Below are positions 34,117 to 55,084 of a DNA stretch of 64,000 nucleotides, one piece after another. Below the pieces are notes generated by a model that made no database searches, was not told the origin of the DNA, and saw nothing but the letters and a program-made list of their open reading frames with translations. The translations under genes and the position numbers were made by a program. Within the stretch, counting starts at the first letter, position 1. Each line of letters begins with the position of its first letter. Origin of the DNA: a bacterium (GTDB lineage Bacteria; Patescibacteriota; Minisyncoccia; Minisyncoccales; GWA2-46-15); NCBI GenBank assembly GCA_030693425.1, contig JAUYAM010000002.1, positions 81,151-145,150 of the forward strand. The letters are read 5' to 3'.

Positions 34117-35595
34117 TTAGCGGGACGGTGCGGGATTCCGCTCCACGCGTAAGCGTGGGAGGAATCCCGTAGCGGAGAAGATACCACGCGCTTGCGCGTG
34201 GAGCTTCATTTTCTTCTTTTCTGTTTTGCCTGTCAATAAAAGCGATAAGTTATAGATATCCCCTGCCCCCATGATAACCAGAACTTCGTTGCCTGTCAGG
34301 TTTTTCTTTAAGTAAGTGACAATTTTTCGGGCAGTCGGAATATAAAAGATCTTTGTATTTCGTATATCGTATTTTGTATCTAGTATTTGTTGGACGGCGA
34401 CGGCGAGCTTTTGAGAATCGACTTTCTTTTTAATAGCCTGGCTTTCGCGGCCAGCCACGCTGTAAATTGGCGCCAAAATGAGCTTATTAATAGGAGCCGC
34501 AGCCAAAACTTTGACAAAATCTTTGAACAAATAATATGTCCTTTGATATTGGTGAGGCTGGAAAACGCAAAAGATTTTCTTTTTCGGATATTTTTCCCTA
34601 ACAGCTTTAAGAGTGACTTCGATTTCTTTTGGGTGATGGGCGTAGTCGGAAATTAGTTTATAGTTTATAGTTTTTAGTTTAATAGTTCTTTCTTCAAAGC
34701 GGCGCCAGGCGCCGCGATATTCGCTTAACGCCTGAAAGCTGGTTTTGTCCGGGATTTTTAAGATTCTGGCAACTGAAAGGGCTGCCAAAGCATCAGCAAC
34801 TATATGTTCGCCAGGTATTTTCAGTATTTTTCTTAGTTTTTCTGCTTCTTTCAATTTTCTATCAAATAATACCGTGTTTTTCACGGCCGTGAAAAAGATG
34901 GTTTTCTCATTTATGTTTGTTACCAGCCAGCCATGTTTTGGCAAATGCCCGACGAATTTTCTGAAAGTCTTGATAATATTGCCTAAGGTTTTAAAGTAAT
35001 CCAAGTGGTCTTTATCAATCGTTGTCAGAACGATGATTTGGGGCCAGTAGTTCAAAAAAGAAGAGGCGTATTCATCGGCTTCGATGACGAGTATTTTGTA
35101 TTTAGTATTTAGTATCTTGTATCCGAATTTTTTCCCAAGGCGGAAGTTACTATCGCCGAATTCTTTTAGTTTTGTGCCGATGATCACGGTCGGGTCAAGG
35201 CCGGCCTTTATCAGGATCAAAGAAATCATCGCGGTGGTCGTGCCTTTGCCGTGAGTGCCGCAGACGGCAATGGTAAAGTATTGTTTAGTCAGCTTGCCAA
35301 GCGCTTCGGGATATGATTGGCGCTTAATCCTCCATTCCTTCGCCGCTTTTAACTCTGGGTTGTTTGGTTGAACCGCCGGGCTGTAAATCACCAAATCCGG
35401 CAACTGTTTAACCTCAGGGGTTAAACATTGGGGGTTGTGTTTGCCGATTCGAACTCTGGCTCCTAATTTTTCTAAGGCCTTGGTTATTTCAGACTCAGCC
35501 AAATCAGACCCTGAAACCTGGTGGCCTTGTGAAAGATAATATCTGGCTAGAGCTGAAACGCCGATGCCGCCAATGCCAATGAAGTGAACTCTCAT
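34117..35595 (-). CDS. murC: UDP-N-acetylmuramate--L-alanine ligase
   Basis: FIGIGGIGVSALA, GTHGKGTTT and EADEYASSF motifs. Carries three in-frame heptamer-array inserts and a ~35-aa C-terminal extension encoded by GC-rich hairpins. Confidence 0.9.
   Translation of the reverse strand: MRVHFIGIGGIGVSALARYYLSQGHQVSGSDLAESEITKALEKLGARVRIGKHNPQCLTPEVKQLPDLVIYSPAVQPNNPELKAAKEWRIKRQSYPEALGKLTKQYFTIAVCGTHGKGTTTAMISLILIKAGLDPTVIIGTKLKEFGDSNFRLGKKFGYKILNTKYKILVIEADEYASSFLNYWPQIIVLTTIDKDHLDYFKTLGNIIKTFRKFVGHLPKHGWLVTNINEKTIFFTAVKNTVLFDRKLKEAEKLRKILKIPGEHIVADALAALSVARILKIPDKTSFQALSEYRGAWRRFEERTIKLKTINYKLISDYAHHPKEIEVTLKAVREKYPKKKIFCVFQPHQYQRTYYLFKDFVKVLAAAPINKLILAPIYSVAGRESQAIKKKVDSQKLAVAVQQILDTKYDIRNTKIFYIPTARKIVTYLKKNLTGNEVLVIMGAGDIYNLSLLLTGKTEKKKMKLHAQARGIFSATGFLPRLRVERNPAPSR
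34354..34388. repeat. 5 x 7-nt tandem array, GTAT type, in frame in murC
   Basis: tgtattt cgtatat cgtattt tgtatct agtattt. Encodes DTKYDIRNTKI. Confidence 0.85.
34654..34688. repeat. about 5 x 7-nt tandem array, TAGTTTA type, in frame in murC
   Basis: tagttta tagttta tagtttt tagttta atagttc. Encodes KLKTINYKLIS. Confidence 0.8.
35090..35124. repeat. 5 x 7-nt tandem array, GTAT type, in frame in murC
   Basis: agtattt tgtattt agtattt agtatct tgtatcc. Encodes YKILNTKYKIL immediately before the conserved EADE motif. Confidence 0.85.
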
Positions 35596-35647
35596 AAAGC
35601 GGAAAGTTTAGAACTGGAGTTTTGACTTTTAAATTATGATTTTGCCC

Positions 35648-36244
35648 TTAGCTTGAGAGCGGACAGCTTTCAAGAATTGAATATTCCGGCCCTTCTTTTG
35701 CCAGCTCGCTTTCCATGACTTCAATTGATTCAACCGGGATTTTCAGAGAAATTTCCTTGTCGATTTCCGGAATTTCTTCCAATTCCATTTCCCGGAACTG
35801 CCATTGTTTGATTCTGGCCAGAGTGACGTGGGGAGAAAATTGATTGTCTTTGGAGTCTTTCACCACTTTTTCAAAAAGGGAGTTTTCTAAGTCCTGCCGA
35901 AGAGCAGAAAGCTCTTTGACTGCTTTTCCGCTCGCCCAGACCATACGCGGCAGCTTTCCTGCCCCGTGGAGGCCTTGCTTCTTTTCGGGATTCCCCGGCG
36001 GTCCGTAAGAGATCCTGTTCAGCTCAAAGACAAAAGGTTTGTGTATTGAGCAAGTTTTCCTGACGATTTCGCAGGTTTCCAGGAGTTCTTCGTCGCTGGC
36101 GTACCCTAAGAACAAGAGCGTTAAATGGAGGTTCTCCTTCTTTGTCCACCTGCAGGGCAGTTCCGGAAACTCGTCTCTGGTTCTGTTCAGGCTTTCCTTG
36201 ACGTCTTTTGGGAAGTTGACGGCGATAAAAATTCTGTGTCCCAT
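35648..36244 (-). CDS. thpR: RNA 2',3'-cyclic phosphodiesterase (2H phosphoesterase, LigT/ThpR)
   Basis: Two H-x-T-x motifs: HLTLLFLG and HVTLARI. Confidence 0.75.
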   Translation of the reverse strand: MGHRIFIAVNFPKDVKESLNRTRDEFPELPCRWTKKENLHLTLLFLGYASDEELLETCEIVRKTCSIHKPFVFELNRISYGPPGNPEKKQGLHGAGKLPRMVWASGKAVKELSALRQDLENSLFEKVVKDSKDNQFSPHVTLARIKQWQFREMELEEIPEIDKEISLKIPVESIEVMESELAKEGPEYSILESCPLSS

Positions 36245-36284
36245 ATTTTTGAATTATAGCAGAAAAAGCATTATAATTGAATAA

Positions 36285-37349
36285 ATGAGAGAAGCTTTAG
36301 TTTACGAAAAACTGAAAGAAGGTTTGGTCCGCTGTCAGGTTTGCCAGAGGCGGTGTTTGGTTGCAGAGGGCAAGACCGGCTTTTGCTTGACAAAGAGAAA
36401 TAAAGGCGGAAAACTAGTCAGCCTGAATTACGGCCTGATCCGAGGAGTCCAATTGGACCCGATTGAGAAAAAGCCTTTTTACCATTTCCGTCCGGGCGCC
36501 TGGGTTCCTTCGATCGGAAACTTTGGCTGCAATTTTAGGTGCAAGCAGTGCCTGAACTGGTGGTGCTCCTGGGGCGAGCCCGCCCAAATTTTGCTCCGCA
36601 AAATTCTGGCGGGTGAACCGGCTGAAATAATTAAACCAGAGCAGCTTATATCTGATTTTAAAAAAGCCGGTTACAAAAGTATTGCTTTCACTTACAACGA
36701 GCCGGTTGTCTGGGCAGAATACGTTTTAGACGCTTCAAAGCTGGCAAAACAGGAAGGTTTTTTTACCGTCTTTGTCACCAACGGCTCCTGGACTAAGGAA
36801 ACCTTAGATAAGATCGGCAAGTTCATTGACGCCGCCAACATCGATTTCAAAGGCTTTTCTGATAAGACTTACAGCAAAATGGGCGCTTTTTTCGGGCAGG
36901 TTCCCGAGATGGCAAAGTACGCCCAGGAAAAACACAAAATCTTTATTGAGATTACCACTCTCTTGATTCCTGGAATCAACGACGGCAAGGAAGAGTTGGA
37001 AGAAATGACAAGATGGATGGTAAAGCACTTGGGCCCAAAGACTCCCTGGCATCTAAGCCGTTTTGACCCGGATCTTGCTCCCGACAAAAGCTTTCAGGCC
37101 CTGCCCCAGACTTCGGTTAAAGATTTAGACAAGGCTGCGGCCATCGGCAAGAAGTCGGGATTGAAGTTTATCTATATCTGGGCGCCGGGTCAGAATTTAC
37201 CCGGAGGCCTCTATGCCCAGGGCAATACCTTTTGTCCGAAGTGCGGCCAGCTGGCGATAGAAAGAACTGCCTGGCAGCCAAAGCTGGTTGGCATAGACAA
37301 AAATGGCTGTTGCTCAAATTGCCAAGAGGATTTAAATGTTAAATTATAA
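36285..37349 (+). CDS. amrS: AmmeMemoRadiSam system radical SAM enzyme
   Basis: CNFRCKQC (CxxxCxxC) cluster motif, N-terminal CQVCQRRC and C-terminal CPKCG...CSNC. PFL-activase-like architecture. Confidence 0.75.
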   Translation: MREALVYEKLKEGLVRCQVCQRRCLVAEGKTGFCLTKRNKGGKLVSLNYGLIRGVQLDPIEKKPFYHFRPGAWVPSIGNFGCNFRCKQCLNWWCSWGEPAQILLRKILAGEPAEIIKPEQLISDFKKAGYKSIAFTYNEPVVWAEYVLDASKLAKQEGFFTVFVTNGSWTKETLDKIGKFIDAANIDFKGFSDKTYSKMGAFFGQVPEMAKYAQEKHKIFIEITTLLIPGINDGKEELEEMTRWMVKHLGPKTPWHLSRFDPDLAPDKSFQALPQTSVKDLDKAAAIGKKSGLKFIYIWAPGQNLPGGLYAQGNTFCPKCGQLAIERTAWQPKLVGIDKNGCCSNCQEDLNVKL

Positions 37350-37353
37350 TTCC

Positions 37354-37971
37354 ATGATTTCCTTCGCCTGTTTTTCGCCTCATCCGCCGCTTCTGCTTCC
37401 CTACATCGGCTCTATTGACGACAGGATTAAGGTCAAAAAGACGCTCCAGGCCCTAGAGTCTTTGGCGAAACAATTTAAGGAAGCTGAAATAGACGAGATT
37501 GTCATTTCCTCTCCTCATTCTGACTGGGGCTTTAACGTTCCCCTTTATTTTTTAGCCAACAACTTTAAAGGAAAGACTACTCCTTACTTGCTGGAATCGG
37601 AACCTCCGAGGTTTTATTTCAAAGAAGCAGAAAAACTGTATAGATCTAAGATTTCTAATTTAAAGTCTAAGGTTGCCTTAATTGCCTCCGGGGATACCTC
37701 CCATTGTTTGAAAAAAGACGGTCCCTACGGCCTTCATGCCGAAGGCCCAAAATTTGACAGAGACTTGATCAGCTATTTGAAAGAGAAAAACATTGAAAAG
37801 ATCTTAAGTCTAGCTGAGATTTATCCCAATGCCGCAGAATGCGGCTTGAGATCTTTTTCCTTTATCCTGGGCATTCTTGAAGCCTCTGGGATAGACTGGC
37901 AATCGGAGATCTTGTCCTACGAGGGTCCTTTGGGAGTCGGCTACCTCGTCGCCAATTTTAAACTTAATTGA
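37354..37971 (+). CDS. LigB-fold (class III extradiol dioxygenase B-like / Memo-related) protein, probable partner of AMMECR1
   Basis: ACFSPHPPLLLP, ISSPHSD, ASGDTSHCL and AAECGLRS motifs typical of the LigB-like domains found with AMMECR1. Start trimmed to MISFACF. Confidence 0.6.
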   Translation: MISFACFSPHPPLLLPYIGSIDDRIKVKKTLQALESLAKQFKEAEIDEIVISSPHSDWGFNVPLYFLANNFKGKTTPYLLESEPPRFYFKEAEKLYRSKISNLKSKVALIASGDTSHCLKKDGPYGLHAEGPKFDRDLISYLKEKNIEKILSLAEIYPNAAECGLRSFSFILGILEASGIDWQSEILSYEGPLGVGYLVANFKLN

Positions 37972-38018
37972 AGAAAAGAAGCCGTTTTGTCAAATCAAAA
38001 AGACTGCCATTTAATTTT

Positions 38019-38050
38019 CTCACTTCACTGCTACGTAGCAGTGAAGTGAG
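38019..38050. repeat. perfect 32-bp palindrome, core CTGCTACGTAGCAG (family member 2)
   Basis: ctcacttcactgctac|gtagcagtgaagtgag, 48 nt after the stop at 37971. Confidence 0.9.
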
Positions 38051-38111
38051 GATTGTGTCATTATAATTTTAGGACGATATTAAATTAGGTTTAAAAGTAA
38101 AATAGAAAACT

Positions 38112-38630
38112 ATGGCTAGATATTCGCAAATTACTAATCAAGAAAAACAAGAATTACTTAGCGATTTCTGCGAAGCCTTAGCAGTTTTAAAAACTGCCGA
38201 CGAGGCAATGAAATTTCTTACCGATCTGCTAGGGCGTCAGGAAATTATCGCTTTGGCAAAAAGAATAAAAATCGCTAAACTTCTCTTAGCCAGCAAAGAT
38301 TACCGCGAAATAGCGCGCCTTCTAAAAGTGAGCCATGCTACGATTGCCAAGGTGAGCCAGTGGTTGATGGAGTCGGGTGAGGGCTTTAAGCTGGTGGCGG
38401 AGAGGACAAAAGACAAGAAACGCAAGCAAATTACCGGTTCTGCCGAATTGAGAAAGATAGAGTGGGATAATTTTAAAAAGGGTCATCCTCTGATGTTCTG
38501 GCCTGAGTTATTGATCAAGGATGTTATTAAAACAATGGATAGAAAACAAAAAGATAAAATAAAAGCGGCGTTGGCTAAAATTGATTATAAATCAAGCCTG
38601 TATAGGCGGATTAATCGTTTGCTGAAATAG
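38112..38630 (+). CDS. TrpR-like YerC/YecD-family DNA-binding protein with C-terminal extension
   Basis: The N-terminal ~100 aa (FLTDLLGRQEIIALAKRIKIAKLL...YREIARLLKVSHATIAKVS) matches the TrpR-related HTH pattern. Confidence 0.6.
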   Translation: MARYSQITNQEKQELLSDFCEALAVLKTADEAMKFLTDLLGRQEIIALAKRIKIAKLLLASKDYREIARLLKVSHATIAKVSQWLMESGEGFKLVAERTKDKKRKQITGSAELRKIEWDNFKKGHPLMFWPELLIKDVIKTMDRKQKDKIKAALAKIDYKSSLYRRINRLLK

Positions 38631-38633
38631 TCG

Positions 38634-38663
38634 TCAGTATACTGCTACGTAGCAGTATACTGA
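38634..38663. repeat. perfect 30-bp palindrome, core CTGCTACGTAGCAG (family member 3)
   Basis: tcagtatactgctac|gtagcagtatactga, 4 nt after the stop at 38630. Confidence 0.9.
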
Positions 38664-38681
38664 TGAGAGACGGCAAGGAAC

Positions 38682-39029
38682 GTGAGTTCGAATCGTATAG
38701 AAGTAAAGAAGGAGATTGTGGAAAAGGAACGTTTATTTAACAAAATCAGAAAAGTTGTGGCCAGAATTCCTAAGGGCAAAGTAACGACTTACGGGGCGAT
38801 CGCTAGATTTTTAGGGTTGCGAGACAGCCGGTTAGTAGGCTACGCTCTTTGGGGAAACCAAGATTCTAAAATTCCTTGCCACAGGGTGGTTAAAAAAGAC
38901 GGTTCTCTGGCCAAAGACTATTCTCTCGGCGGCTGGCAAGAGCAGAAACGAAGATTAGAAAAAGAAGGAGTAAAGTTCTTGAAGGAAAATCAGGCAAACC
39001 TTAAAAAACATTATTGGCAGCCCCGTTAG
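38682..39029 (+). CDS. MGMT-family protein (methylated-DNA-protein-cysteine methyltransferase DNA-binding domain)
   Basis: IPKGKVTTYGAIA and PCHRVV active-site-type motifs. GTG start in the track. Confidence 0.7.
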   Translation: MSSNRIEVKKEIVEKERLFNKIRKVVARIPKGKVTTYGAIARFLGLRDSRLVGYALWGNQDSKIPCHRVVKKDGSLAKDYSLGGWQEQKRRLEKEGVKFLKENQANLKKHYWQPR

Positions 39030-39178
39030 GAAAACACAGGGGTTTTCGTGGAATTCCAAGAAGCGAAATATCTTCGTCTGAAAACCCCTCTAACTATTTT
39101 TAAATAATGCCTTATGATATATGAAAATTTAAACATTCTAACCACGGAAGATATTTAATTTCCTACGGGGCAGCCTAA

Positions 39179-39745
39179 ATGAACATAGCCAAATTAGCGA
39201 GAATAGCGGTTGAAACATATATTAGAGAGGGCAAGGTTGCAGATATTCCGAAAAACCTTCCGGAGGAATTCTTGATGGAAAAAGCCGGGGTTTTCGTGTC
39301 GATCTTTCGATCTCCACGCGGAACTGACGCTGAACAAAAACGCGGAACCGACGCTGAAAAAGAATTACGAGGTTGTGTCGGCACTTATTTGCCTGTCAGA
39401 GAAAACATTGCCCAGGAAACGATCCATAACGCCGTTGCTTCGGCCAGCCAGGATCCCAGGTTTTCTCCGGTCTCAAAAGAAGACTTAGGCCAGCTTTCTT
39501 ACTCCGTTTATATCCTGGGAGAACCGAAACAAATGGAAAGGCTTGAAGAACTCGATCCGAAAAAGTATGGTATTATAGTGAAGGCCAGAGATTTTCCTTC
39601 AAAAACCGGACTTTTGCTCCCCGGCCTTAAGGGCATTGACAGCGTTGACGCCCAGATTTATATCGCCTCCCAGAAAGCTGGCATTGACCTCAAAAAAGAA
39701 GAAATCTTAATTTACCGGTTCGAAGTCGAAAAATACCATGACTGA
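39179..39745 (+). CDS. amrA: AMMECR1-domain protein (AmmeMemoRadiSam system protein A)
   Basis: LRGCVGTY core motif and DPRFSPV. Contains an in-frame 2x24-nt tandem duplication (RGTDAEQK/RGTDAEKE). Confidence 0.8.
   Translation: MNIAKLARIAVETYIREGKVADIPKNLPEEFLMEKAGVFVSIFRSPRGTDAEQKRGTDAEKELRGCVGTYLPVRENIAQETIHNAVASASQDPRFSPVSKEDLGQLSYSVYILGEPKQMERLEELDPKKYGIIVKARDFPSKTGLLLPGLKGIDSVDAQIYIASQKAGIDLKKEEILIYRFEVEKYHD
39317..39364 (+). repeat. 2 x 24-nt in-frame tandem duplication in amrA
   Basis: cgcggaactgacgctgaacaaaaa / cgcggaaccgacgctgaaaaagaa. Confidence 0.85.
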
Positions 39746-40205
39746 GAAAACCAACCAACGTCTTGAGAAAAAACGCCGAAAGAAAAGAAAAGAGGAAACC
39801 GAGATCCAAAAGATCGTCAACCACTATTTCTATACCAAAGGCTTGACTTTGGAGCGGATCAAGAAAGACGCCAGAAAAAAGAAAATCATCTATTCTAGGT
39901 TTACCCGGCCGGCAAAGCAGCTGTTGATTTTGGCCGGATCTGTCAGAAAGGCCAAAGCCGCCATTACCAGAGTCGCCGACTGGGCAAAATCAAGGAAATT
40001 GGACTATGCCATAGAAACTGTTTTTAAGAAATGGCTGGAGTTGGACAAGCTGAAGCCCAAGGAAATCGTCAAGAAACCTTATTTCCAGGGAGATCCGATG
40101 GTTTGGTCGGAAAGCAAAAGAAAATGGTACGTTGTCACCAAAGACGGCGACTGGCTGGAATTCGCCGGCAAAGACGACGAAGTTGAGTGGAGAATCGTCA
40201 AATAG
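39738..40205 (+). CDS. hypothetical basic protein (155 aa)
   Basis: Lys/Arg-rich N-terminus. 8-nt overlap with amrA. No recognised motif. Confidence 0.4.
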   Translation: MTEKTNQRLEKKRRKKRKEETEIQKIVNHYFYTKGLTLERIKKDARKKKIIYSRFTRPAKQLLILAGSVRKAKAAITRVADWAKSRKLDYAIETVFKKWLELDKLKPKEIVKKPYFQGDPMVWSESKRKWYVVTKDGDWLEFAGKDDEVEWRIVK

Positions 40206-40222
40206 CCAAAGATTTCAGTAAG

Positions 40223-41194
40223 ATGAAGATTGTTTTTTTCGGAACGCCGGATTTTGCGGCCACTATTTTAGAGAAACTTGTCAAAAATAATTTCAAGCCG
40301 GTTTTGGTTGTGACTTCTCAGGATAAACCCATTGGTCGCCGGCAGGAGCTAACTCCCCCGTCGGTCAAGATTGAAGCGCAAAAATACGGCCTTCCGGTTT
40401 TGCAGCCGGAATCTTTTGACATTCCCGAATTCCGCCAGGTCCTTTTTAATTCTCAACCAGACTTTATTGTTTTGGCCGCTTTTGGCCCGCCTTTCTTGGA
40501 CAAAAAGATTTTGAATATCCCAAAGTACGGTTGCCTCAACGTTCATCCCTCTCTTTTGCCAAAGTACCGGGGCGCCTCCCCTATTCCCCAGGCGATTTTA
40601 AATGGCGAAAAGGAAACCGGAGTGACTATTATCAGAATGTCGGAAAAAATCGACCAGGGCGACATCCTTTCTCAGGAAAAATTGGAGATTTTGCCGGTAG
40701 ACACGGCTTTAACACTAACAAATAAACTGGCTGGTTTGGGCGGCAGCCTTTTGGTGAAAACCATTTCTGCTCTGGTTGGAAGCGGGATTTTTCCCCGGCC
40801 CCAAGGAGAATCCCCTACGCCCTATTGCCCCCAGCTTAAAAAAGAAGACGGTAGAATTAACTGGGATTGTCCGGCCGACTACATTGAAAGGCAGACCAGA
40901 GCTTTTGATCCCTGGCCGGGAACTTATACGTTTTTTGAAAAAAAGATCTTGAAAATCCTGAAAACCCATGTTATAACGGACAGAATGTCCGATATATCGT
41001 CGCACGCTATAAATGAGAATGAACCGGAGAGAAAAGCAGGTTTTGTTTTTTTGACCAGAGACGGCAAGTTGGCGGTTCAGGCCCAGAAAGGCTCTTTGGT
41101 TGTCGAGATTCTGCAGCTCGAAGGGAAAAAGCCCGTGCCCGTCCAAGACTTTTTAAGGGGACACCGGGACATTGTCGGTGCCACCCTGGAATAG
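40223..41194 (+). CDS. fmt: methionyl-tRNA formyltransferase
   Basis: Start trimmed to MKIVFFGTPDFA. Motifs NVHPSLLPKYRGASPI and a C-terminal Fmt domain. Confidence 0.9.
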   Translation: MKIVFFGTPDFAATILEKLVKNNFKPVLVVTSQDKPIGRRQELTPPSVKIEAQKYGLPVLQPESFDIPEFRQVLFNSQPDFIVLAAFGPPFLDKKILNIPKYGCLNVHPSLLPKYRGASPIPQAILNGEKETGVTIIRMSEKIDQGDILSQEKLEILPVDTALTLTNKLAGLGGSLLVKTISALVGSGIFPRPQGESPTPYCPQLKKEDGRINWDCPADYIERQTRAFDPWPGTYTFFEKKILKILKTHVITDRMSDISSHAINENEPERKAGFVFLTRDGKLAVQAQKGSLVVEILQLEGKKPVPVQDFLRGHRDIVGATLE

Positions 41195-41196
41195 TT

Positions 41197-41231
41197 TCAT
41201 ACTAAATACCAGATACTAAATACTATATACT
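41197..41231. repeat. 5 x 7-nt tandem array, GTAT type, intergenic (opposite orientation)
   Basis: ATAC recurs every 7 nt (about 41199, 41206, 41213, 41220, 41227). Shares actaaataccagatact with the reverse complement of the dnaX array. Confidence 0.85.
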
Positions 41232-41238
41232 ATAATTT

Positions 41239-41805
41239 ATGTTGGGTTATTTCGATTTAAGAAGAGGCATCCAGTTCATTTATGAAGGCCAGCCTTACGA
41301 GGTTTTAGATTTCAACCAGATGAAAAAAGCCCAGCGAGAAGGAATTGCCCAAGTGAAAATGAGAAACTTAATTACCGGCAAGGTTATTGAGCAGGGTTTC
41401 CATTCGAGCGATCACTTTGAGGAGGCCGATCTCCAGAGATTGAGGGCAAAGTATCTTTACAATCACCGGGGCAGGTTTTTCTTTTCCGAAGAGAAAGATT
41501 CGAGCAAGAGGCTTGAGTTGAGTCAAGAACAAGTTGGCCAGGGATCAAGGTTTCTGAAGGCCGGGCAAGTCATTGACACCATCATCTTTGAAGAAAAGAT
41601 TATCACCGTTTCTTTGCCGATCAAAGTCCAGTTAAAAGTGACCGAAGCCCCTCCGGGCGTTCAGGGCGATCGGGCCCAGGGCGGAGTCAAGTCAGCCGTT
41701 TTGGAAACCGGAGCCTCCATTAATGTTCCCCTATTCATTGAAGAAGGAGATCTTATTGAAGTCAACACCGAAACAGGAGAATATGCCAAGAGAGCAAATG
41801 AATAA
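41239..41805 (+). CDS. efp: elongation factor P
   Basis: 188 aa with the three-domain EF-P pattern (KVTEAPPGVQGDRAQGGVKSAVLETG). Confidence 0.9.
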   Translation: MLGYFDLRRGIQFIYEGQPYEVLDFNQMKKAQREGIAQVKMRNLITGKVIEQGFHSSDHFEEADLQRLRAKYLYNHRGRFFFSEEKDSSKRLELSQEQVGQGSRFLKAGQVIDTIIFEEKIITVSLPIKVQLKVTEAPPGVQGDRAQGGVKSAVLETGASINVPLFIEEGDLIEVNTETGEYAKRANE

Positions 41806-41818
41806 AATTATGTTAAGC

Positions 41819-41849
41819 AAAAACGTCCCGCTTCAAGCGGGACGTTTTT
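41819..41849. terminator. bidirectional intrinsic terminator
   Basis: aaaaacgtcccgct-tca-agcgggacgttttt, between convergent efp and the 41858 gene. Confidence 0.8.
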
Positions 41850-41857
41850 GTTATGTT

Positions 41858-42931: not shown

Positions 42932-42949
42932 AGTTTTCTTCCAGTTTGG

Positions 42950-45874: not shown

Positions 45875-45891
45875 GCTATTTTAGGACGGAA

Positions 45892-47130: not shown

Positions 47131-47165
47131 ACAAAAAACTCAGTGCGTCCTCCATCGCACCGAGT
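47131..47165 (-). terminator. intrinsic terminator downstream of the M20 peptidase gene
   Basis: Minus strand: ACUCGGUGCG-AUGGAGGA-CGCACUGAGU followed by UUUUUUGU. Confidence 0.75.
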
Positions 47166-47186
47166 TATCTATGATCTTCATGAAAT

Positions 47187-48428: not shown

Positions 48429-48560
48429 TGGGCACATCTCCTTTTCTAGCTCGTCTGAGAGCTATCTCTAGCCAAACAGAAAAAGTTCTTTCAGTCAAGA
48501 GTCAATTACAAAAAACCCTGTCAAAAAAACAAGGTTGTCTATAGAATAAATCTAAAGAAA

Positions 48561-48593
48561 ACAAAAAAAGAGTCACTAAAAAAAAGTGACTCT
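48561..48593 (-). terminator. intrinsic terminator about 280 nt downstream of the DedA-like gene
   Basis: Minus strand: AGAGUCAC-U8A-GUGACUCU followed by UUUUUUGU. Confidence 0.65.
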
Positions 48594-48869
48594 CCCAACT
48601 TCTCTTTTCCGCGCTGGCGGGCGTTTGGTCGACATGCTCATCGTGCGCTTGTACTTCAAATGGTACTTCCACGCCCGGAGCCTCGGAAAAGAATCAACAT
48701 TGAGAGAGCCACAAATTAGCCACCTTTAGCTAAAAAGACGACCACTTTGCGACTCTCCCAACGATATGTTTAAGGAGCTATATTTACACAAGCAAATTCC
48801 AAAAAGTTTGTCAACAGTCCCGGCGGTTTTGGGCGTAGCAATCGGACATCGTTTGTTCGGAGGTTATTA

Positions 48870-49385
48870 TTAAATAATCTTTCCAAACGATACGATGCCA
48901 AATCCCAATATAATAAACCGAACGAATTTGCCCAAAAACATAGGAAGAACAAAACTTTTATAAGGAAATTCCAAATAGCCGGCGACAAAGCCGATTATAT
49001 CGTAAGGTATTGGAATCAAAGACCAAACAAAAAAAGCGATCGGGCCAAATTTGTGGATGCTTGCTTCTATTTTCTCCACTTTTTTGGAACGGGGCATAAT
49101 CACGTCCCCGCTTCTGCCCACCAGCCAACTGACGCTGTCGTTTAACGACATTCCCAGAGCCGAGGCCAGGGCCAACCAAAAAATGTTCATGTGCTTGGCT
49201 AGCGAAAATACCAGTAAAGTCCCGGGGCCGAACAAGTTGAAAACAAAAACGCCGCTATAGCCAAATTTCAGAAACGGCTTTGGATCAAGCGAGATGACAA
49301 GAGTTAAAACAAAAAATAAAATACCCAAGATAATGGTTATTTCTTTAAATCTTCGCGATTGGAAAATTTTTGCTAACTTGCTCAT
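48870..49385 (-). CDS. DedA/VTT-domain (YqaA-like) membrane protein
   Basis: 171 aa, multi-TM. SLIPIPYDIIGFVAGYL pattern. Confidence 0.6.
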   Translation of the reverse strand: MSKLAKIFQSRRFKEITIILGILFFVLTLVISLDPKPFLKFGYSGVFVFNLFGPGTLLVFSLAKHMNIFWLALASALGMSLNDSVSWLVGRSGDVIMPRSKKVEKIEASIHKFGPIAFFVWSLIPIPYDIIGFVAGYLEFPYKSFVLPMFLGKFVRFIILGFGIVSFGKII

Positions 49386-49491
49386 TATCTCAAAATTGCC
49401 CGAATGCCCTGAGTTTATCGAAGGACTACTACCGGGAAAGGGGAATTTTAGCGATTTTAGCTATTCCCTAATGACGCGTTTCGGTCGTGGG

Positions 49492-50079
49492 TTATTTCAA
49501 TAAATTTAAGTCTGCAGTAATTCTTTTGGTTAATTCATTTTTTCCTTCATTTGTTTTGGCCGAATATCGCAAAACTGGTATATCTCGCGCTTCTTTTTGG
49601 ATTAACGAAAGCTGTTTTTCCGCGGCGCCTTTAGCTAATTTATCAATTTTGTTTGCAATAATGATAACTTGGTGTTTGTTTGCTTCAAGAATTTTTATCA
49701 TATCCCGATCAAGGGCAGTCAAACCGACGTTGGCATCAATAATTAAAAAAATTGCCTTTGGCCTCGCTTTGGAAAACTCCACATACCAAAGAATCCTTTT
49801 GATCATTTTGTTGCGTTCCAATATCGAACACTTCGCATATCCGTATCCGGGAAAATCAACTAAATAAAAAGAATCATTGATGCGGAAAAAATTCGCTTCA
49901 CGCGTTTTCCCCGGCGTCTTGCTCACTTTTACAAAGTCTTTTTTACCGACTAAAGAGTTAATTACGCTTGATTTCCCCGCATTGGAACGGCCAAAAAAAG
50001 CGATATGCGGCAAATTATCTTCCATGCCGTAATTGTCTCCGATAACACCTTTGACAAATTCTACTTTTGATATTTTCAT
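49492..50079 (-). CDS. engB: ribosome biogenesis GTP-binding protein YsxC/EngB
   Basis: GRSNAGKSS (G1), DFPGYG (G3) and NKIDK (G4). Confidence 0.85.
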   Translation of the reverse strand: MKISKVEFVKGVIGDNYGMEDNLPHIAFFGRSNAGKSSVINSLVGKKDFVKVSKTPGKTREANFFRINDSFYLVDFPGYGYAKCSILERNKMIKRILWYVEFSKARPKAIFLIIDANVGLTALDRDMIKILEANKHQVIIIANKIDKLAKGAAEKQLSLIQKEARDIPVLRYSAKTNEGKNELTKRITADLNLLK

Positions 50080-50280
50080 ATTTATAATTTCTTCCTATCA
50101 TTCCTTCCTGTTCTATCGAAACGAAAAACACTCTCTATGTATATTAGGATTTTAGCACAAAATGAGGCAAATGAGACACGGAAAGCGGTATTTCGGCGTG
50201 TGCGGGGCTCGGATTCGAACCGGTCATGGTTTAGCGCTGAAGATTTCTCCGCCGTTCTTTTTTGTGATATGGTACTCTAT

Positions 50281-51459
50281 ATGGATCAATCTTTGGGTTT
50301 TTACAGCCTTGGCATCGCCCCAAACATATTACAGATACTTGATAGACTTAATTTCAAAGTTCCCACTCCTATTCAGGAAAAATCGATTCCTCCGGCGATA
50401 GAGGGAAAAGATATGATCGGCATCGCCCAGACCGGCACCGGAAAGACGCTGGCTTTCGGCGTGCCCATGATTCAGGCCGCGCTCCGAGGAAAACAGGGGC
50501 TCGTCGTCTTGCCGACAAGAGAGCTCGCCCTCCAAATAAATGAAGTCTTCCATAAGATCGGATCTCCCCTCGGCGTGCGGACGGCGGTTTTGATCGGCGG
50601 CGAACCCATTGGCCGCCAGATTCAAGCGCTCCGTAGGAATCCTCAGATTGTGATTGGCACCCCGGGAAGGGTCATCGATCATCTTGGGCAAAAGACGGTT
50701 TCGTTCAAATCCATTGCCGTTCTGGTTCTCGACGAGGCAGATCGGATGCTTGATATGGGTTTTGCGCCACAGTTGAAGCGGATACTCCAGGTACTGCCTC
50801 GCGATCGGCAAACCATGCTTTTCTCGGCGACAATGCCTCAAGACATCGTTATTATGGCGCGCTCGTATATGAAATTTCCTGTTCGTATTGAGATCGCTCC
50901 ACCGGGTACTCCGCCCGAGAAGATTACGCAAGAACTTTTCTTCGTGCAGAAACAGGACAAGCCGCGGCTTCTAGAAAAAATTTTAACGGAATATCGCGGA
51001 TCCGTGCTTATATTTTCCCGCACGAAATTCGGCGCGAGAAAAATTACCAGAAACATCCGCGCTTTGGGCCAGACCGCGGCAGAAATTCACTCAAATAGGT
51101 CGCTTAACCAGCGCCGGGAGGCACTCGAAGGATTTCGGAACGGAACTTATCGAATTCTCGTGGCCACCGACATTGCCGCTCGCGGCATAGACGTGAGGGG
51201 CATCGAGCTGGTGCTAAACTACGATCTTCCCCATAGCCCGGAGGACTACGTTCATCGCATCGGACGGACGGGACGGGTAGGTGATGCTGGCCATGCTATC
51301 TCTTTTGCCATGCCAGAGGAGAAAAGCGATGTCTGGGGGATCGAGCGGCTGATCCGAGAAACTTTACCGCTCTCGAAACTTCCCCAGCTTCCACTCGTCC
51401 GCCCGGCCATATTTGTGCCAAGATATTCAAGGCCGGGACGGTTCAGACGACAGAGATAG
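50281..51459 (+). CDS. DEAD-box ATP-dependent RNA helicase
   Basis: Q motif (PTPIQ), AQTGTGKT, DEAD, SAT and HRIGRTGR. Start trimmed to MDQSLGF. Confidence 0.9.
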   Translation: MDQSLGFYSLGIAPNILQILDRLNFKVPTPIQEKSIPPAIEGKDMIGIAQTGTGKTLAFGVPMIQAALRGKQGLVVLPTRELALQINEVFHKIGSPLGVRTAVLIGGEPIGRQIQALRRNPQIVIGTPGRVIDHLGQKTVSFKSIAVLVLDEADRMLDMGFAPQLKRILQVLPRDRQTMLFSATMPQDIVIMARSYMKFPVRIEIAPPGTPPEKITQELFFVQKQDKPRLLEKILTEYRGSVLIFSRTKFGARKITRNIRALGQTAAEIHSNRSLNQRREALEGFRNGTYRILVATDIAARGIDVRGIELVLNYDLPHSPEDYVHRIGRTGRVGDAGHAISFAMPEEKSDVWGIERLIRETLPLSKLPQLPLVRPAIFVPRYSRPGRFRRQR

Positions 51460-51465
51460 TTCTTG

Positions 51466-52428
51466 TCATTTTTTAGCCTTGATGTCGTTCAGGATCTTTT
51501 CTACATTTTTTATGCTTTCCGTATCGTTCACAGAAATCGCTATCACATAGGGATCTATTTTTTTGAGCGCCGATAATTTTTTATTGAGATCTTTCGGCAT
51601 TACCAGATCGCTCTTTGTTAGAAAAAGACGTTCTGGTTTTTTAAGGAGCGCCATGTTCCACGCGCCTAGTTCTTGGCGGATGATCTGGTAGTCTTTCAGG
51701 GGAGCTGCAGATTCCGTTGAAATAAAGTGGAAAAGAATATGCGTCCGCTCAATGTGGCGGAGGAATTTGATACCCAGCCCTCGACCGCTTGATGATCCCT
51801 CGATGAGCCCGGGAATATCCGCGAGGATAAGTTCGTAGTATGCGCCTAAGTTGGGTTCAAGCGTGGTAAATGGATAATTGGCTACTTTGCTTTTGGCATT
51901 CGTAAGCTCATTGAGCCAGCTTGATTTGCCGACATTTGGAAGTCCCACGAAACCGATATCGGCAATAAACTTGAGCTCGAGCCGGAAGGCAAAATGCTCT
52001 CCGGGCAGACCCGGTTGCGCTTGTTTCGGCGTGGTGTTGCGTGAAGAACGAAACTGGAAATTGCCTTTTCCGCCGAGGCCGCCTTTGGCGAGGAGGATCC
52101 GCTCGCCGGTCTTTTCAAAGTTAATTTCGCTGCCGTTTGTAAGGTTGTGGGCGACGGTTCCGATTGGAAGTTTCAGGACGAGATCACTTGCGTTGTAACC
52201 GTCGCGGAACTGACCGCGGCCGTCCCGGCCGTCCTCCGCCGAAAACACCTTTTTAAAGCGGAACTGCCGGAGCGCCGTGAGATCGGAGACGCCTTCGCCA
52301 TAGACGCTGCCGCCCTTGCCGCCCGACCCTCCGACCGGCCCGAGGCTTTTCATGTTTTTATTAAACGCCACCGCGCCCTTTCCGCCATGGCCAGCCTTTA
52401 TTTCTATTTCAACGTCGTCAATAAGCAT
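51466..52428 (-). CDS. obg: GTPase Obg/CgtA
   Basis: Obg fold (KAGHGGKGAVAF, glycine-rich repeats) plus a GTPase domain (GLPNVGKSS, DIPGLIEG). Confidence 0.9.
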   Translation of the reverse strand: MLIDDVEIEIKAGHGGKGAVAFNKNMKSLGPVGGSGGKGGSVYGEGVSDLTALRQFRFKKVFSAEDGRDGRGQFRDGYNASDLVLKLPIGTVAHNLTNGSEINFEKTGERILLAKGGLGGKGNFQFRSSRNTTPKQAQPGLPGEHFAFRLELKFIADIGFVGLPNVGKSSWLNELTNAKSKVANYPFTTLEPNLGAYYELILADIPGLIEGSSSGRGLGIKFLRHIERTHILFHFISTESAAPLKDYQIIRQELGAWNMALLKKPERLFLTKSDLVMPKDLNKKLSALKKIDPYVIAISVNDTESIKNVEKILNDIKAKK

Positions 52429-52498
52429 TGCTTTTGTGTCACCTTGAATTCTTGAATTTTAACACAAAACAGATTCCCACGGGCAAGCCCGTGGGAAT

Positions 52499-52756
52499 CT
52501 ATGAATAAAGTTCTGAATGGGATCCAATGGTGATAAATATGGAGATTTTCTCTTTGGCTTGGAAAATCGCTCTGTAATTCCCTGTTATGTTGATGCTTCG
52601 GCATCCGGGGAACGCCCGCCCTACAAAATGATTGTTAAGGGATGGATCGAAGGGGTTATTTAGAAATATATCGAGGCGTTTTTGGAATTGCGTCTTGATA
52701 TTATTCGGCAGTTTACTAAACTTCTTTTTGAAATTTTTATGGAAAACAGCCTCCAT
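52499..52756 (-). CDS. type II toxin, RelE/YafQ-family mRNA interferase
   Basis: 85 aa. KKFSKLP...RLD.FL.NPFDPSL..H...G....RSINITGNYRAIF pattern. 4-nt gap to the upstream antitoxin. Confidence 0.7.
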   Translation of the reverse strand: MEAVFHKNFKKKFSKLPNNIKTQFQKRLDIFLNNPFDPSLNNHFVGRAFPGCRSINITGNYRAIFQAKEKISIFITIGSHSELYS

Positions 52757-52760
52757 GATT

Positions 52761-53036
52761 CTAACGCTTCAAATATGTCAGGGCTTTCTTCGCGTCTTTA
52801 AAAGCGGGAGAAAGATTTTTATTCCTTTTGATGTCTTGAGTCGCTTGTTCTATTTCTTGCTTGGTGTTTTGATTAAACGCAAGATCGTGACCCAAGATAA
52901 TATTGAGCTTATTCTCCGCGTACGCTTTCGCGGCAAGCTTAAGAATCATTGAAAAAGGCACGCCATCGGCTTGCGCTTTTTTCATGGCGCGCTCTTTGAT
53001 TTGCGAATCAATGCTGAAAATCATTTTGCTTGTCAT
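52761..53036 (-). CDS. type II antitoxin, RelB/DinJ-like (ribbon-helix-helix)
   Basis: 91 aa. An N-terminal beta-strand and helices (FSIDSQIKERAMKKAQADGVPFSMILKLAAKAYA) resemble DinJ. Confidence 0.65.
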   Translation of the reverse strand: MTSKMIFSIDSQIKERAMKKAQADGVPFSMILKLAAKAYAENKLNIILGHDLAFNQNTKQEIEQATQDIKRNKNLSPAFKDAKKALTYLKR

Positions 53037-53113
53037 ATATCGATTATATATCTACCATATATACATGTCAACCCATTCGATAAACTCAGGGTTGACCCTG
53101 AAGAAAAATAGTG

Positions 53114-53365
53114 TCAACTCTGATTTTTTATCAAATTAAGTTTCTTCTCACGGCGCCACCCCTTTATTTCTGATTCATAGCGCCTAGCGTCTTTAAGGGT
53201 GTTGAACTCCTTTGAAAACTTCAAAACCACAGGTCTTCTTAATTTTGTATAATGCGCGCCCCATTTTGAATTATTATGTTGTCTTATCCGTTTTGTTAAA
53301 TCATTCGTACATCCAACATATAATGACTGGTCTGCGCACTCAACTATGTAAACGTAATATGACAT
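53114..53365 (-). CDS. GIY-YIG nuclease-family protein (UPF0213-like), copy B
   Basis: Start trimmed to MSYYVYIVECADQSLYVGCTNDLTKRIRQHN. The longer track ORF reads through the tRNA gene. Confidence 0.8.
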   Translation of the reverse strand: MSYYVYIVECADQSLYVGCTNDLTKRIRQHNNSKWGAHYTKLRRPVVLKFSKEFNTLKDARRYESEIKGWRREKKLNLIKNQS

Positions 53366-53485
53366 GGCACTTCGTCGCCAAGGCTCCTCAGTGTCTTCAA
53401 TTTTCTGTATATTAAATTGGTCGAAATCCTGAGTGCAGCGAAGGATGTAGACTCTGAAATTTGAGCAGAAGCGAAAATTGAAGAG

Positions 53486-53556
53486 CTGCCGGGGAACGAA
53501 TCGAACGTTCATTAGAGCTTTCAAAGAGCTCCGTCCTACCATTAGACGACCCGGCA
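53486..53556 (-). tRNA. tRNA-Gln(UUG): tRNA-Gln (anticodon UUG)
   Basis: Hand-folded cloverleaf: TGCCGGG TC GTCT AATGGTA GGAC G GAGCT CTTTGAA AGCTC TAAT GAACG TTCGATT CGTTC CCCGGCA G. U1:A72 and G73 as in bacterial tRNA-Gln. CCA is not encoded. Confidence 0.9.
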
Positions 53557-53579
53557 ATATCTATTGCGCACTTAAAGCA

Positions 53580-53816
53580 TCAAAATATCTTCTTTAAAAA
53601 TTTACGGCCGCTGGCAGATTTCAAGTATTTTTCTCTTTTTCTGGCACCAATGAAGTTATTAAACTTTTCCGTATAAATAATTGTCCACGGCATGTATCTT
53701 TTTGTGTAAGCATGTTTTCCAGAATTATGTTCCTCTAGTCTTCTCTTAATATCATTAGTTACTCCAATATAGCTTTTATTAGCAATATCGCTTTTGAGCA
53801 GATAAACGATAAACAT
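53580..53816 (-). CDS. GIY-YIG nuclease-family protein (UPF0213-like), copy A
   Basis: Start trimmed to MFIVYLLKSDIANKSYIGVTNDIKRRLEEHN. The longer track ORF reads through the tRNA-derived sequence. Confidence 0.8.
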   Translation of the reverse strand: MFIVYLLKSDIANKSYIGVTNDIKRRLEEHNSGKHAYTKRYMPWTIIYTEKFNNFIGARKREKYLKSASGRKFLKKIF

Positions 53817-53824
53817 ATTTTTTG

Positions 53825-53887
53825 GTCCTACCATTAGACCCGCCTCGCATCGACGAGCGAATGCGAGTCGAGGCGGGCGACCCGGCA
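53825..53887 (-). pseudogene. partial duplicate of the tRNA-Gln 5' part (nt 1-24) interrupted by a 39-nt hairpin
   Basis: TGCCGGGTCG [cccgcctcgactcgcattcgctcgtcgatgcgaggcggg] TCTAATGGTAGGAC. Identical to the acceptor 5' strand plus D-arm of the intact gene. Confidence 0.85.
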
Positions 53888-53911
53888 ATGTCAAAACCCA
53901 AATACCAAAAA

Positions 53912-55084
53912 CTATTCAACTCCGCAATACTCGACAATTGCCAGCTCCAGGGGCAATTGCAAGATTGGCGAAGATTTCATTCGGTTCTGGGCGTCTAAAA
54001 ACAGATTTATGAGCTTTCTTAAATCCTCCTCTTTAAACTTTTGCGCTTGGTTTTTGAGGTTTTTGAATTCCTCATCGGTCAAGCCGTCGGTCAAAGGATT
54101 GTGTAGGCTTTCTCCTCCGATTTTGAACATCAGGCTGGCGTGGAGGTACTTCACCGTTTCTGAAACAAATTCCTGCAGGTCTATCCCCTCTTCAAAAACC
54201 TGACCTAAAAAGCTTAAGGCGTTTTTGGCGTCTTTGTCCAAGATGAAACCAACAAATCTTGAAACCTTTTGGATGCCCACCATTCCCAGCATTTCCCTCA
54301 GATCCTCTGTTTTGATGACGGTTTCCCTGCCTTGTTTTGAGCAAAAAGTGGCGGCCTGGTCAAGAATGCTTTCTGCGTCCCTGAAAGAGCCTCCGGAGTT
54401 TAAAGCGATGAGCTCCAAAGCTGATTTTTCTATCTTTAGATCCTCTTTTTTTGAAATGATTTCCAGGCGTTTTATAATCTCGGGCATTTTCAGCCTTTTG
54501 AAGTCAAACCTCTGGCATCTGGAAATGATGGTCGGGATCATTTTATGGATTTCGGTGGTGGCTAAAATAAAAATAGCGTGGCTAGGAGGTTCTTCTAAAG
54601 TTTTTAAAAGGGCGTTTGAGGCTTCTTTTGTCAGCTGGTGACTTTCGTCAATGATAAAAACCTTGTATTTTGACTTTGTTGGGGAGTACTTAATCCCCTC
54701 TTTTAATTCCCTGATTTCGTCAATACCCCTATGAGAAGCAGCGTCAATCTCAATCAAGTCAATGGCTCTGCCGTCATTAACCTCAAGACAGCTTGAGCAT
54801 TTGTTGCAAGGCTCGAAACTAGTATCTAGTATCTGGTATTTAGTATCTGGTATTCTTTTTGATTCTGCTTCTGCGGTTTTTTTGTTTCTAGTTTCGCAAT
54901 TAAGGGCTTTCGCGAACAATCTGGCTATTGTGGTTTTCCCCGATCCTTTTGGACCAGAAAACAAATATCCTTGGGAAAGAATTTTTGAGCTCAAGGCGTT
55001 AGTCAGGGTTTTGACGATGTGCTCCTGGCCGATAACTTCGCCAAAAGTCTTTGGCCGGTATTTTCTGTAAAAAACCTGGTTCAT
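53912..55084 (-). CDS. dnaX: DNA polymerase III subunit gamma/tau (short form)
   Basis: GPKGSGKTT Walker A, DESHQLT, SRCQRF. 390 aa, domains I-III only. A heptamer-array insert lies in the zinc-module loop. Confidence 0.9.
   Translation of the reverse strand: MNQVFYRKYRPKTFGEVIGQEHIVKTLTNALSSKILSQGYLFSGPKGSGKTTIARLFAKALNCETRNKKTAEAESKRIPDTKYQILDTSFEPCNKCSSCLEVNDGRAIDLIEIDAASHRGIDEIRELKEGIKYSPTKSKYKVFIIDESHQLTKEASNALLKTLEEPPSHAIFILATTEIHKMIPTIISRCQRFDFKRLKMPEIIKRLEIISKKEDLKIEKSALELIALNSGGSFRDAESILDQAATFCSKQGRETVIKTEDLREMLGMVGIQKVSRFVGFILDKDAKNALSFLGQVFEEGIDLQEFVSETVKYLHASLMFKIGGESLHNPLTDGLTDEEFKNLKNQAQKFKEEDLRKLINLFLDAQNRMKSSPILQLPLELAIVEYCGVE
54821..54855. repeat. 5 x 7-nt tandem array, GTAT type, in frame in dnaX
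   Basis: agtatct agtatct ggtattt agtatct ggtattc. Encodes PDTKYQILDTS between the first Cys and the CNKCSSC of the Zn module. Confidence 0.85.

Follow-up and report, generated by a model that had tools for sequence, protein, structure and literature searches.

Seven-nucleotide repeat arrays in frame within core genes of a Patescibacteria genome: probable STRR-like cassettes

How does a repeat with a unit of seven nucleotides, which is not a multiple of three, come to lie in frame inside essential genes? The question is raised by a 64-kb stretch of DNA (the window, whose coordinates are used below unless a relative's locus is named), in which arrays of about five tandem heptamers occur within murC and dnaX, the genes of a cell-wall ligase and of the DNA polymerase III gamma/tau subunit, and in the spacer between fmt and efp. 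The window comes from a metagenome-assembled genome (MAG) of Patescibacteria: its MurC and DnaX proteins match the MAG, on a 453-kb contig, at 100%, and their relatives, at 60–76% identity, are from Parcubacteria, Nealsonbacteria and other Patescibacteria. With ~1 Mb, Patescibacteria genomes are among the smallest free-living-type genomes known. Since about 1990, heptanucleotide repeats have been known from cyanobacteria and a few other bacteria as a curiosity without an explanation, and they have been treated almost wholly as intergenic. On balance, we consider it rather probable that the arrays are heptanucleotide cassettes like the short tandemly repeated repetitive (STRR) sequences of cyanobacteria, born and maintained at the DNA level, exchanged among relatives and filtered by coding selection. 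The cassettes are typically of 4–6 units, ~30–40 nt.

The original prediction described four 35-nt arrays, two in murC, one in dnaX and one between fmt and efp. All four are present with five ATAC cores in each, while a third array in murC and a double array in a gene for a phosphoenolpyruvate (PEP)-utilising enzyme had been overlooked, making four an undercount (Table 1). Tandem Repeats Finder (TRF) called the ATAC arrays with period 7 and a 14-nt super-period, and found the third murC array and the double array besides. Lag autocorrelation (35-nt scanning windows, identity of at least 78% at lag p) detected five period-7 loci in the window, none with periods 5, 6 or 8–12, and 20 dinucleotide shuffles gave no locus either. 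Nine overlapping matches to a degenerate 25-nt array pattern were obtained in the window versus none in 100 shuffles. This genome's own arrays, counted within the 64 kb, amount to 6–7 loci of the unit families ATAC, AAACTAW, GTTCCAA and AAATCCC, and window and relatives have 9–12 loci per 100 kb. The count of five units, first taken to be constant, is the mode: genic arrays have 3–6.6 units and spacer arrays are longer. The identical string in the dnaX and intergenic arrays, given as 17 nt, is really 20 nt long and lacks significance (P = 0.064 for a random pair of arrays assembled from observed units), and copy-and-paste between the two loci was therefore dropped. The intergenic copy is inverted, as had been said, on the plus strand only; all copies agree in sense when transcription is taken as the reference.

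Table 1. Heptamer arrays in the window and the genes that carry or flank them
Feature	Position	Strand	Remarks
murC, UDP-N-acetylmuramate--L-alanine ligase, 492 aa, three heptamer arrays	34117..35595	-	TIGR01082, 368 bits
MurC site a array, AAATACT AGATACA AAATACG ATATACG AAATACA (sense)	34354..34388	-	peptide ILDTKYDIRNT(K)
MurC site c array, (AAACTAW) x4.7 (sense)	34654..34687	-	peptide KLKTINYKLIS; TRF
MurC site b array, GGATACA AGATACT AAATACT AAATACA AAATACT (sense)	35090..35124	-	peptide GYKILNTKYKIL
fmt-efp intergenic array, ATACTAA ATACCAG ATACTAA ATACTAT ATACTAT	41197..41231	+	spacer
fmt	40187..41194	+	stop at 41194
efp	41239..41805	+	ATG at 41239
dnaX, DNA polymerase III gamma/tau, 390 aa	53912..55084	-	TIGR02397, 411 bits
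DnaX heptamer array, GAATACC AGATACT AAATACC AGATACT AGATACT (sense)	54821..54855	-	peptide IPDTKYQILDT
DnaX zinc-module insert, whole, residues 67-90, NKKTAEAESKRIPDTKYQILDTSF	54815..54886	-	replaces 3 residues of E. coli gamma
Double array, (GTTCCAA) x4 + (AAATCCC/AAATTCA) x~4 (sense)	3730..3790	-	peptide VPSSKFQVPNKSQIQNPKLK
PEP-utilising (PPDK/PpsA-like) gene, double-array host	2906..5404

Since 7 is coprime to 3, a perfect array encodes the same heptad peptide, cyclically, whichever frame is used; the common relative frame of the genic copies, to which weight had been given, is thus uninformative. Stop codons are what such a unit brings along: (ATACTAA)n and its complement each contain one per 21 nt, and the genic arrays have CAG, AAA or GAT variants precisely where TAC-TAA would fall. 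These stop-removing variants account for the K/Q/D position of the peptides and for the degeneracy of the NGTATYN pattern. Among 74 arrays in 459 kb, 47 are genic, and in 43 of these the sense strand is the A-rich one (43:4, p = 3e-9), whereas spacer arrays between co-directional genes are oriented 6:5, without bias (genic versus spacer, Fisher p = 0.008). A bias found in genes only is imposed by coding, that is, by A-rich codons and the hydrophilic residues K/N/T/Q/I, and not by transcription or an RNA role, and a sense-RNA function of the arrays was rejected on this ground. Coding selection therefore filters the cassettes, as is shown by the kept frame, the stop-removing variants and the A-rich sense strand, and what passes the filter is a set of hydrophilic K/N/T/Y/I/L/Q heptads forming small surface hairpins or loops.

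Genic arrays make up 64–76% of the total (47/74 above and 22/29 in a second sample), so that they are not predominantly intergenic as STRRs are; per base, spacers are nevertheless 2.5–3.4-fold enriched in arrays. Only one array in the window (that of efp) and few in the relatives are placed just upstream of a start codon, most arrays being gene-internal. The RNA of five window arrays forms no hairpin (minimum free energy, MFE, 0 to −4.6 kcal/mol; z −1.4 to +0.9), and an Rfam search of the window gave no match except one tRNA. Some spacers in relatives have inverted array pairs that form strong hairpins, such as that of locus L205 (−21.2 kcal/mol, z = −5.2); here and below L-numbers denote relatives' loci and P-numbers protein orthologs. 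Long hairpins of this kind lie at 3044–3137 in L205 and at 4228–4330 and 4772–4871 in L027, and one arm (29 nt) of the L205 hairpin is absent from its close relative L332.

Are the genic arrays insertions? The suggestion that they extend loops of conserved proteins was borne out by ortholog alignment for the DnaX zinc module and for the MurC segment before EADE, and for MurC site a relative to many orthologs of the candidate phyla radiation (CPR) only. Alignment of DnaX to E. coli gamma structures places residues 67–90 (24 residues) opposite gamma residues 68–70 (three), between the zinc ligands Cys64 and Cys73. This loop mostly reads NCxNRKxxx(F/Y)EPCNxCxSC in 119 orthologs, and that of the window is ~20 residues longer. 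In a neighbour-joining (NJ) tree of loop-masked DnaX, the window protein falls inside the clade P0122–P0125, no member of which has any insert; the insert is therefore a gain on the terminal branch, and an ancestral insert later lost was rejected. Other inserts were gained in the same loop in at least 6–8 further lineages, several of them heptad-periodic. The dnaX junctions have neither a target-site duplication nor an evident seed. Directly downstream of dnaX (53114–53894) there are two small GIY-YIG-type open reading frames (ORFs) and a tRNA (53486–53556, minus strand); in L004 and L207, too, dnaX is followed by a GIY-YIG gene.

In MurC, site b is a clean addition of 10 aa relative to most CPR orthologs and to solved MurCs, directly before EADE. 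The C-terminal site a adds 9–13 aa relative to many CPR orthologs, but some of the solved MurCs are about as long in this segment. Site c is a hairpin of conserved length before DYAHHP and is not a net insertion. In an AlphaFold2 (AF2) model of MurC (mean predicted local distance difference test score, pLDDT, 84), onto which the inserts were mapped as surface hairpins or loop, beta-hairpins are formed by sites b and c, and site a (pLDDT ~74) comprises the end of a helix and a loop. The double array adds 14 aa to the PPDK-like protein relative to its ortholog in L001. In-frame insertion at surface positions, the habit of Rickettsia palindromic elements (RPEs), is thus seen in DnaX, MurC and the PPDK-like protein. 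The fmt-efp spacer is 44 nt long in the window and 19 nt, with no array, in L004, and the array ends 7 nt upstream of the efp ATG. Its reading as a former coding tail of fmt, in whose frame alone it is open, was rejected; in three genomes Fmt has the same last residue, and the array is therefore truly intergenic. A role as a promoter or in leaderless transcription was dropped on inspection, since the TATAAT is only 2 nt from the ATG and too close for a leaderless start.

Two other peculiarities of murC deserve mention. A perfect 20-nt palindrome at 34877–34896 on the minus strand (TTTTTCACGG/CCGTGAAAAA) is in frame and codes FFTAVKN, and the peptide F(F/S)T(I/A/V)VKN is found repeatedly in the hypervariable region of many MurC orthologs, which suggests a separate in-frame palindromic element. 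The 34 C-terminal residues (459–492; 34120–34221) are absent from all 31 aligned orthologs, have pLDDT below 50 and overlap a GC-rich inverted repeat (34140–34155/34189–34204, 94% complementary); at its 3′ end the ORF may run on into a repeat element or one resembling a terminator.

Is it the peptide or the DNA that is conserved? Among genomes whose MurC proteins are 66–72% identical, the fraction of same codons is 0.44–0.49 in the rest of murC, where synonymous sites are saturated, versus 0.83–1.0 within the arrays (Fisher p = 3e-4 to 1e-2); of the nucleotides, 65/69 are identical in the arrays versus 865/1242 in the rest of the gene. In twelve ATAC-type arrays of eight genomes, picked by peptide pattern alone, Ile is always encoded by ATA (16/16, versus 18% elsewhere; p = 6e-12), Tyr by TAC (16/16, versus 46%) and Asn by AAT (10/10), and Leu is encoded by CTA in 5/9 cases (versus 9%). 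Synonymous codon positions keep the 7-nt unit, which selection on the peptide alone cannot explain. Convergent selection for a heptad hairpin motif (NTKYKIL-like), with the DNA periodicity as a by-product, would fit the hairpins modelled at sites b and c and the recurrence of the peptides in many orthologs. We regard it as very improbable in view of the invariant codons, rare ones such as ATA and CTA included, in a gene saturated at its other synonymous sites, of the same arrays in spacers, and of sites at which different unit families, hence different peptides, are found.

The arrays are not confined to this genome. In scans of a genome collection and of viral contigs, which give breadth of occurrence rather than frequencies, about 22 of 80 ATAC-type arrays among the matches listed are from Patescibacteria, and the other carriers among the matches listed are Bacteroidota, Omnitrophota, Planctomycetota, Cyanobacteria and others; viral contigs have such arrays as well. 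Occurrence across many phyla and viruses points to a general repeat class. The arrays of Patescibacteria are short, with mixed unit variants, whereas long perfect arrays occur elsewhere. A metagenome scan gave ~12 Patescibacteria loci, the remaining loci being used as controls. Period-7 arrays number 12.3 per 100 kb in 187 kb of Patescibacteria murC loci, in which periods 6 and 8–12 gave none, versus 2.5 per 100 kb in 828 kb of ordinary bacteria. Residues of murC lying in 7-nt periodicity number 233/6,905 (3.4%) in 15 Patescibacteria genes versus 0/6,953 in 15 controls. Copy number in 299 kb of unselected Patescibacteria DNA peaks at 4–5 (2, 7, 13, 5 and 1 arrays with 2, 3, 4, 5 and 11 units, respectively), unlike period-5 repeats, whose copy number decays monotonically. 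A literature search for heptamer repeats in Patescibacteria or CPR found no relevant description, in line with the original prediction.

Several further arrays in this material stand out. At murC site c of L128 (10892–10923) the unit is ACCCTAA, the plant-type telomere heptamer, which codes LHPKPYTL, a peptide also found in P0011, P0021 and P0029. A 1,324-aa ORF of Peribacteria (L039, 1148–5122) has five consecutive arrays of five unit families within ~260 residues. Two arrays lie side by side in the PPDK-like gene of the window, in P0107, and in the DnaX loop of both L206 and L207.

The units differ from genome to genome. Unit consensus sequences are 1.80 mismatches apart within genomes and 2.43 between them (permutation p = 0.0008). 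The window has ATAC arrays at both MurC site a and the fmt-efp spacer, and L205 has the AAATTAG family at both, in the spacer as an inverted pair. At site a an ATAC-family array is also found in L001, L004, L330 and L331. At site c the unit is AAACTAW, AAAATTA, AAAATCA, ACCCTAA, GATTCAA or GAAGTTR depending on the genome. Carriers of the site-b array are polyphyletic in an NJ tree, and a single origin of that array was rejected, mosaicism having been shown. L205 and L332 form a mosaic pair, 90–95% identical overall, whose murC genes are 100% identical for hundreds of nucleotides on either side of site c; at site c itself L205 has an AAACTAW array and L332 a GAAGTTR array of equal length and frame. 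The L205 array is 93–97% identical to that of the window, with 39 nt fully identical, although the flanks are only ~70% identical. Nine indels of at least 6 nt separate the two loci; three involve heptamer arrays and two a 27-nt GC-rich hairpin element. Cassettes are thus gained, lost and replaced between related genomes, as is also evident from the terminal-branch gain in DnaX and the absence of the fmt-efp array from L004.

Unit number at site b is the same in the window, L205, L001 and L329. Phase-variable contingency repeats, which vary in unit number between close strains, could switch murC or dnaX on and off, because any change in the number of 7-nt units shifts the frame. The hosts, however, are essential single-copy genes, the arrays are imperfect, the site-b count is constant and three samples of one species do not vary (L001–L003, which differ by 1–4 nt in ~20 kb), so that this explanation is extremely improbable.

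Discrete size and equal-length replacement at site c also bring to mind a dedicated mobile mini-element, in the spirit of miniature inverted-repeat transposable elements (MITEs) or RPEs, in which a unit of ~35 nt is inserted in trans by a transposase, an integrase or a reverse transcriptase with a repeat template. Both dnaX and the fmt-efp spacer gained their array recently and in a single step, the ATACCAG unit is common to these two arrays, and one family is present at unrelated sites, all of which would agree with it. Yet terminal inverted repeats, target-site duplications and a hairpin are absent, the arrays vary in phase and length, a seed is present at site b, no linked enzyme is seen in the window, and the 20-nt identity discussed above carries no significance. 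Moreover, a writer of perfect units would always bring in a stop. Such an element is, in our judgement, quite unlikely. The 27-nt element is another matter. It lies in frame at 10131–10157 of L205 (in murC) and at 9748–9774 of L332 (in a LigT-like gene) (TGAGTCGCCCTTCGGGCGCCTCGGAAG, AAATGAGTCACCCTCCGGGCGCCTCGG), and it looks like a truly mobile, RPE-like mini-insert. Similar GC-rich peptides (PPSSRFAGLRRAG, SGELAExSSHLAPRSALPSS) are found in MurC and DnaX orthologs.

Could the arrays instead be cis recognition sites for a lineage-specific trans factor, about five units being the size of its binding platform? On DNA this might be a ribbon-helix-helix (RHH) protein polymerising on 7-bp heptads, as the omega repressor does, or an uptake or segregation signal with 'dialects'; on a single strand, it might be oligonucleotide-binding (OB)-fold proteins (cold-shock or S1 domains), each covering ~7 nt. 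Conservation at synonymous sites, the peaked array size, the co-variation of unit family between site a and the spacer within a genome, and spacers with direct and inverted arrangements would all be expected of binding sites. So would the concentration of arrays in murC, which has 15 of 29 in 8% of the sequence (p = 9e-10; p = 4e-7 excluding the window), although these 15 are not independent events, about four hot sites recurring. On the other hand, presence is patchy even among close relatives, so that no site is indispensable, the loss of orientation bias outside genes speaks against a sense-RNA role, and several unit families coexist in one genome. Known uptake signals are far denser: DNA uptake sequences (DUS/USS) have about one copy per kb, compared with ~1 array per 10 kb here. 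No candidate factor was identified. That some arrays adjoin start codons, as do TAACTGA repeats (PMC4679880) and the heptamers of Nostoc (bioRxiv 10.1101/2022.06.06.494920), adds to the points in its favour, and we hold a trans factor to be a possibility, if a doubtful one.

We return to STRR-like cassettes maintained at the DNA level, the reading that we favour. An array would be born when a 7-nt unit is copied with strand slippage or template switching. At site b the start was probably a one-unit seed in conserved codons: uninserted orthologs have (K/E)-Y-L codons there, for example GAATACTTG or AAGTACCTG, equal to one unit in register, and the net gain of 30 nt is made up of four units (28 nt) and a lengthening of the upstream A-run by two A. 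Once born, arrays would act as discrete cassettes, passing between genomes by short-patch recombination in a recombining species complex. Synonymous conservation would reflect maintenance of the DNA, through either intra-array homogenisation or cassette-level exchange; each unit position is non-synonymous in some phase, and under homogenisation this three-phase coding constraint would hold the unit. A specific cellular function would not be needed. As to the earlier proposal of a discrete ~35–36-nt element rather than local slippage, the peaked size, the unit-wise gains in DnaX and the fmt-efp spacer and the unit-wise swap speak for it, while the seed at site b leaves room for local growth.

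Several observations weigh against this reading. No slippage intermediates or unit-number polymorphism were seen, the samples L001–L003 being near identical, and stepwise growth is hard to reconcile with the data, since single-unit steps are frameshifts in an essential gene. Net insert lengths (30, ~27–36, 42 and ~57–60 nt) are not multiples of 7 or 21. The identity of window and L205 arrays (94–97%) ends where the arrays end, whereas ordinary homologous recombination ought to bring flanking sequence with it. Local seeds do not explain one unit family at several unrelated sites per genome, a neutral model does not predict the excess in murC, and the period of 7 is not accounted for. It is conceivable, though we think it unlikely, that heptamer cassettes of ~35 nt are written, maintained or exchanged in frame within essential genes by an active, sequence-programmed process of Patescibacteria, which perhaps separately does so for the 27-nt hairpin cassettes. 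This may be a dedicated machinery of cassette insertion or replacement with a genome-specific template; alternatively, the cassettes may co-evolve, as 'dialects', with a genome-specific factor that binds nucleic acids or with a genome-specific uptake/segregation signal. Either version would explain the fixed size, the synonymous conservation, one family at unrelated sites and the equal-length swaps.

The window has other unusual sequences as well. In an AMMECR1-like gene (39179..39745), an 11-nt tandem repeat (ACGCGGAACAG x3.7, 39316–39358) codes RGTDAEQKRGTDAEKELRG and represents another family of in-frame repeats. MurC site c of L004 and L126 has related DNA and peptides (ELRGTxRGT), and L205 and L332 differ by a 28-nt indel that is likewise related. 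Between 32400 and 33200 there is a GC-rich patch (0.65–0.68, versus a window mean of 0.44) over an ORF (32679..33545) for a Pro/Ala-rich, zinc-ribbon-like protein.

What is new here is that a known kind of repeat is found in frame inside core cell-wall and replication enzymes of Patescibacteria. It makes an old question about heptamers testable, as the unit is conserved despite saturated synonymous sites, families follow the genome and not the site, and cassette swaps between near-identical genomes are clean. Heptamer cassettes are a concrete source for the lineage-specific loop insertions common in CPR proteins, and they are usable as recombination markers in uncultivated populations; annotators and structure predictors should be aware that these segments derive from repeats. 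Should a trans-acting factor or a mechanism that writes the arrays exist, it would be something new in CPR biology.

How do the arrays compare with known systems? The STRR heptanucleotide repeats of Calothrix and Nostoc are dispersed short tandem arrays with several unit families that differ between lineages. The likeness drawn in the original prediction is apt, as a 7-nt head-to-tail unit, many dispersed loci and lineage-specific families are all found here. Unlike the STRRs of heterocystous cyanobacteria, the present arrays have Patescibacteria as hosts and are mostly genic and in frame, even in essential enzymes; their units are A/T-rich and imperfect, with stop-fixing variants and a narrow size distribution. 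The likeness to RPEs did not hold. RPEs are palindromes of ~100–150 bp that lie in frame in conserved genes and add surface segments while function is kept. The arrays share with them short in-frame repeats adding surface segments to conserved genes, but they are direct repeats of ~35 nt without a hairpin and so fail the defining palindrome, which removes the analogy for these structure-free arrays; the objects here that do resemble RPEs, the murC palindrome and the 27-nt hairpin element, are separate. The omega repressor of plasmid pSM19035 is an RHH protein that binds contiguous 7-bp WATCACW repeats at plasmid promoters and parS centromere sites. Contiguous 7-bp units, direct or inverted and several per site, are a likeness of geometry only, since most copies here are inside genes and the binder is putative.

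Over-representation of heptamers in bacteria, STRRs included, is known and uncharacterised (PMC4692102). TAACTGA repeats occur in marine Beggiatoaceae and also in Cyanobacteria and Bacteroidetes, in 2–6 copies and mostly between genes (MacGregor 2015, PMC4679880). In forward orientation they have stops in all frames, and the rare copies in ORFs are at protein peripheries; some lie just upstream of start codons, and mobility was suspected with no mechanism found (PMC4679880). The present arrays resemble them as heptamer direct repeats with stops, some copies in ORFs and some near start codons. They differ in that they comprise many families rather than a single unit, are mostly genic and inside conserved domains, do not lie in their majority a few nucleotides upstream of start codons, and have demonstrated synonymous-site conservation and cassette replacement. 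For heptamers near start codons in Nostoc a regulatory role was proposed (bioRxiv 10.1101/2022.06.06.494920). The G-rich heptameric simple sequence repeats (SSRs) GGGAATC and GGGGAYT of Xanthomonas and Nostoc have 2–26 units with a preferred copy number of four, form G-quadruplexes (G4) and show under-representation within coding sequence (PMC4692102). A heptamer-specific excess and a preferred copy number (four there, 4–5 here) are common to both, but the present arrays are structure-free and mostly coding. Finally, the tandem repeats of Borgs give rise to new, often disordered protein segments, with an A-rich coding strand and units divisible by three, and the genic ones are perfect and unique to each locus (PMC9879509). 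Our arrays likewise have an A-rich coding strand, are in frame and genome-specific, and encode new protein segments; their unit of 7 nt, in contrast, is not divisible by three, and they are imperfect, common to several loci and conserved between species.

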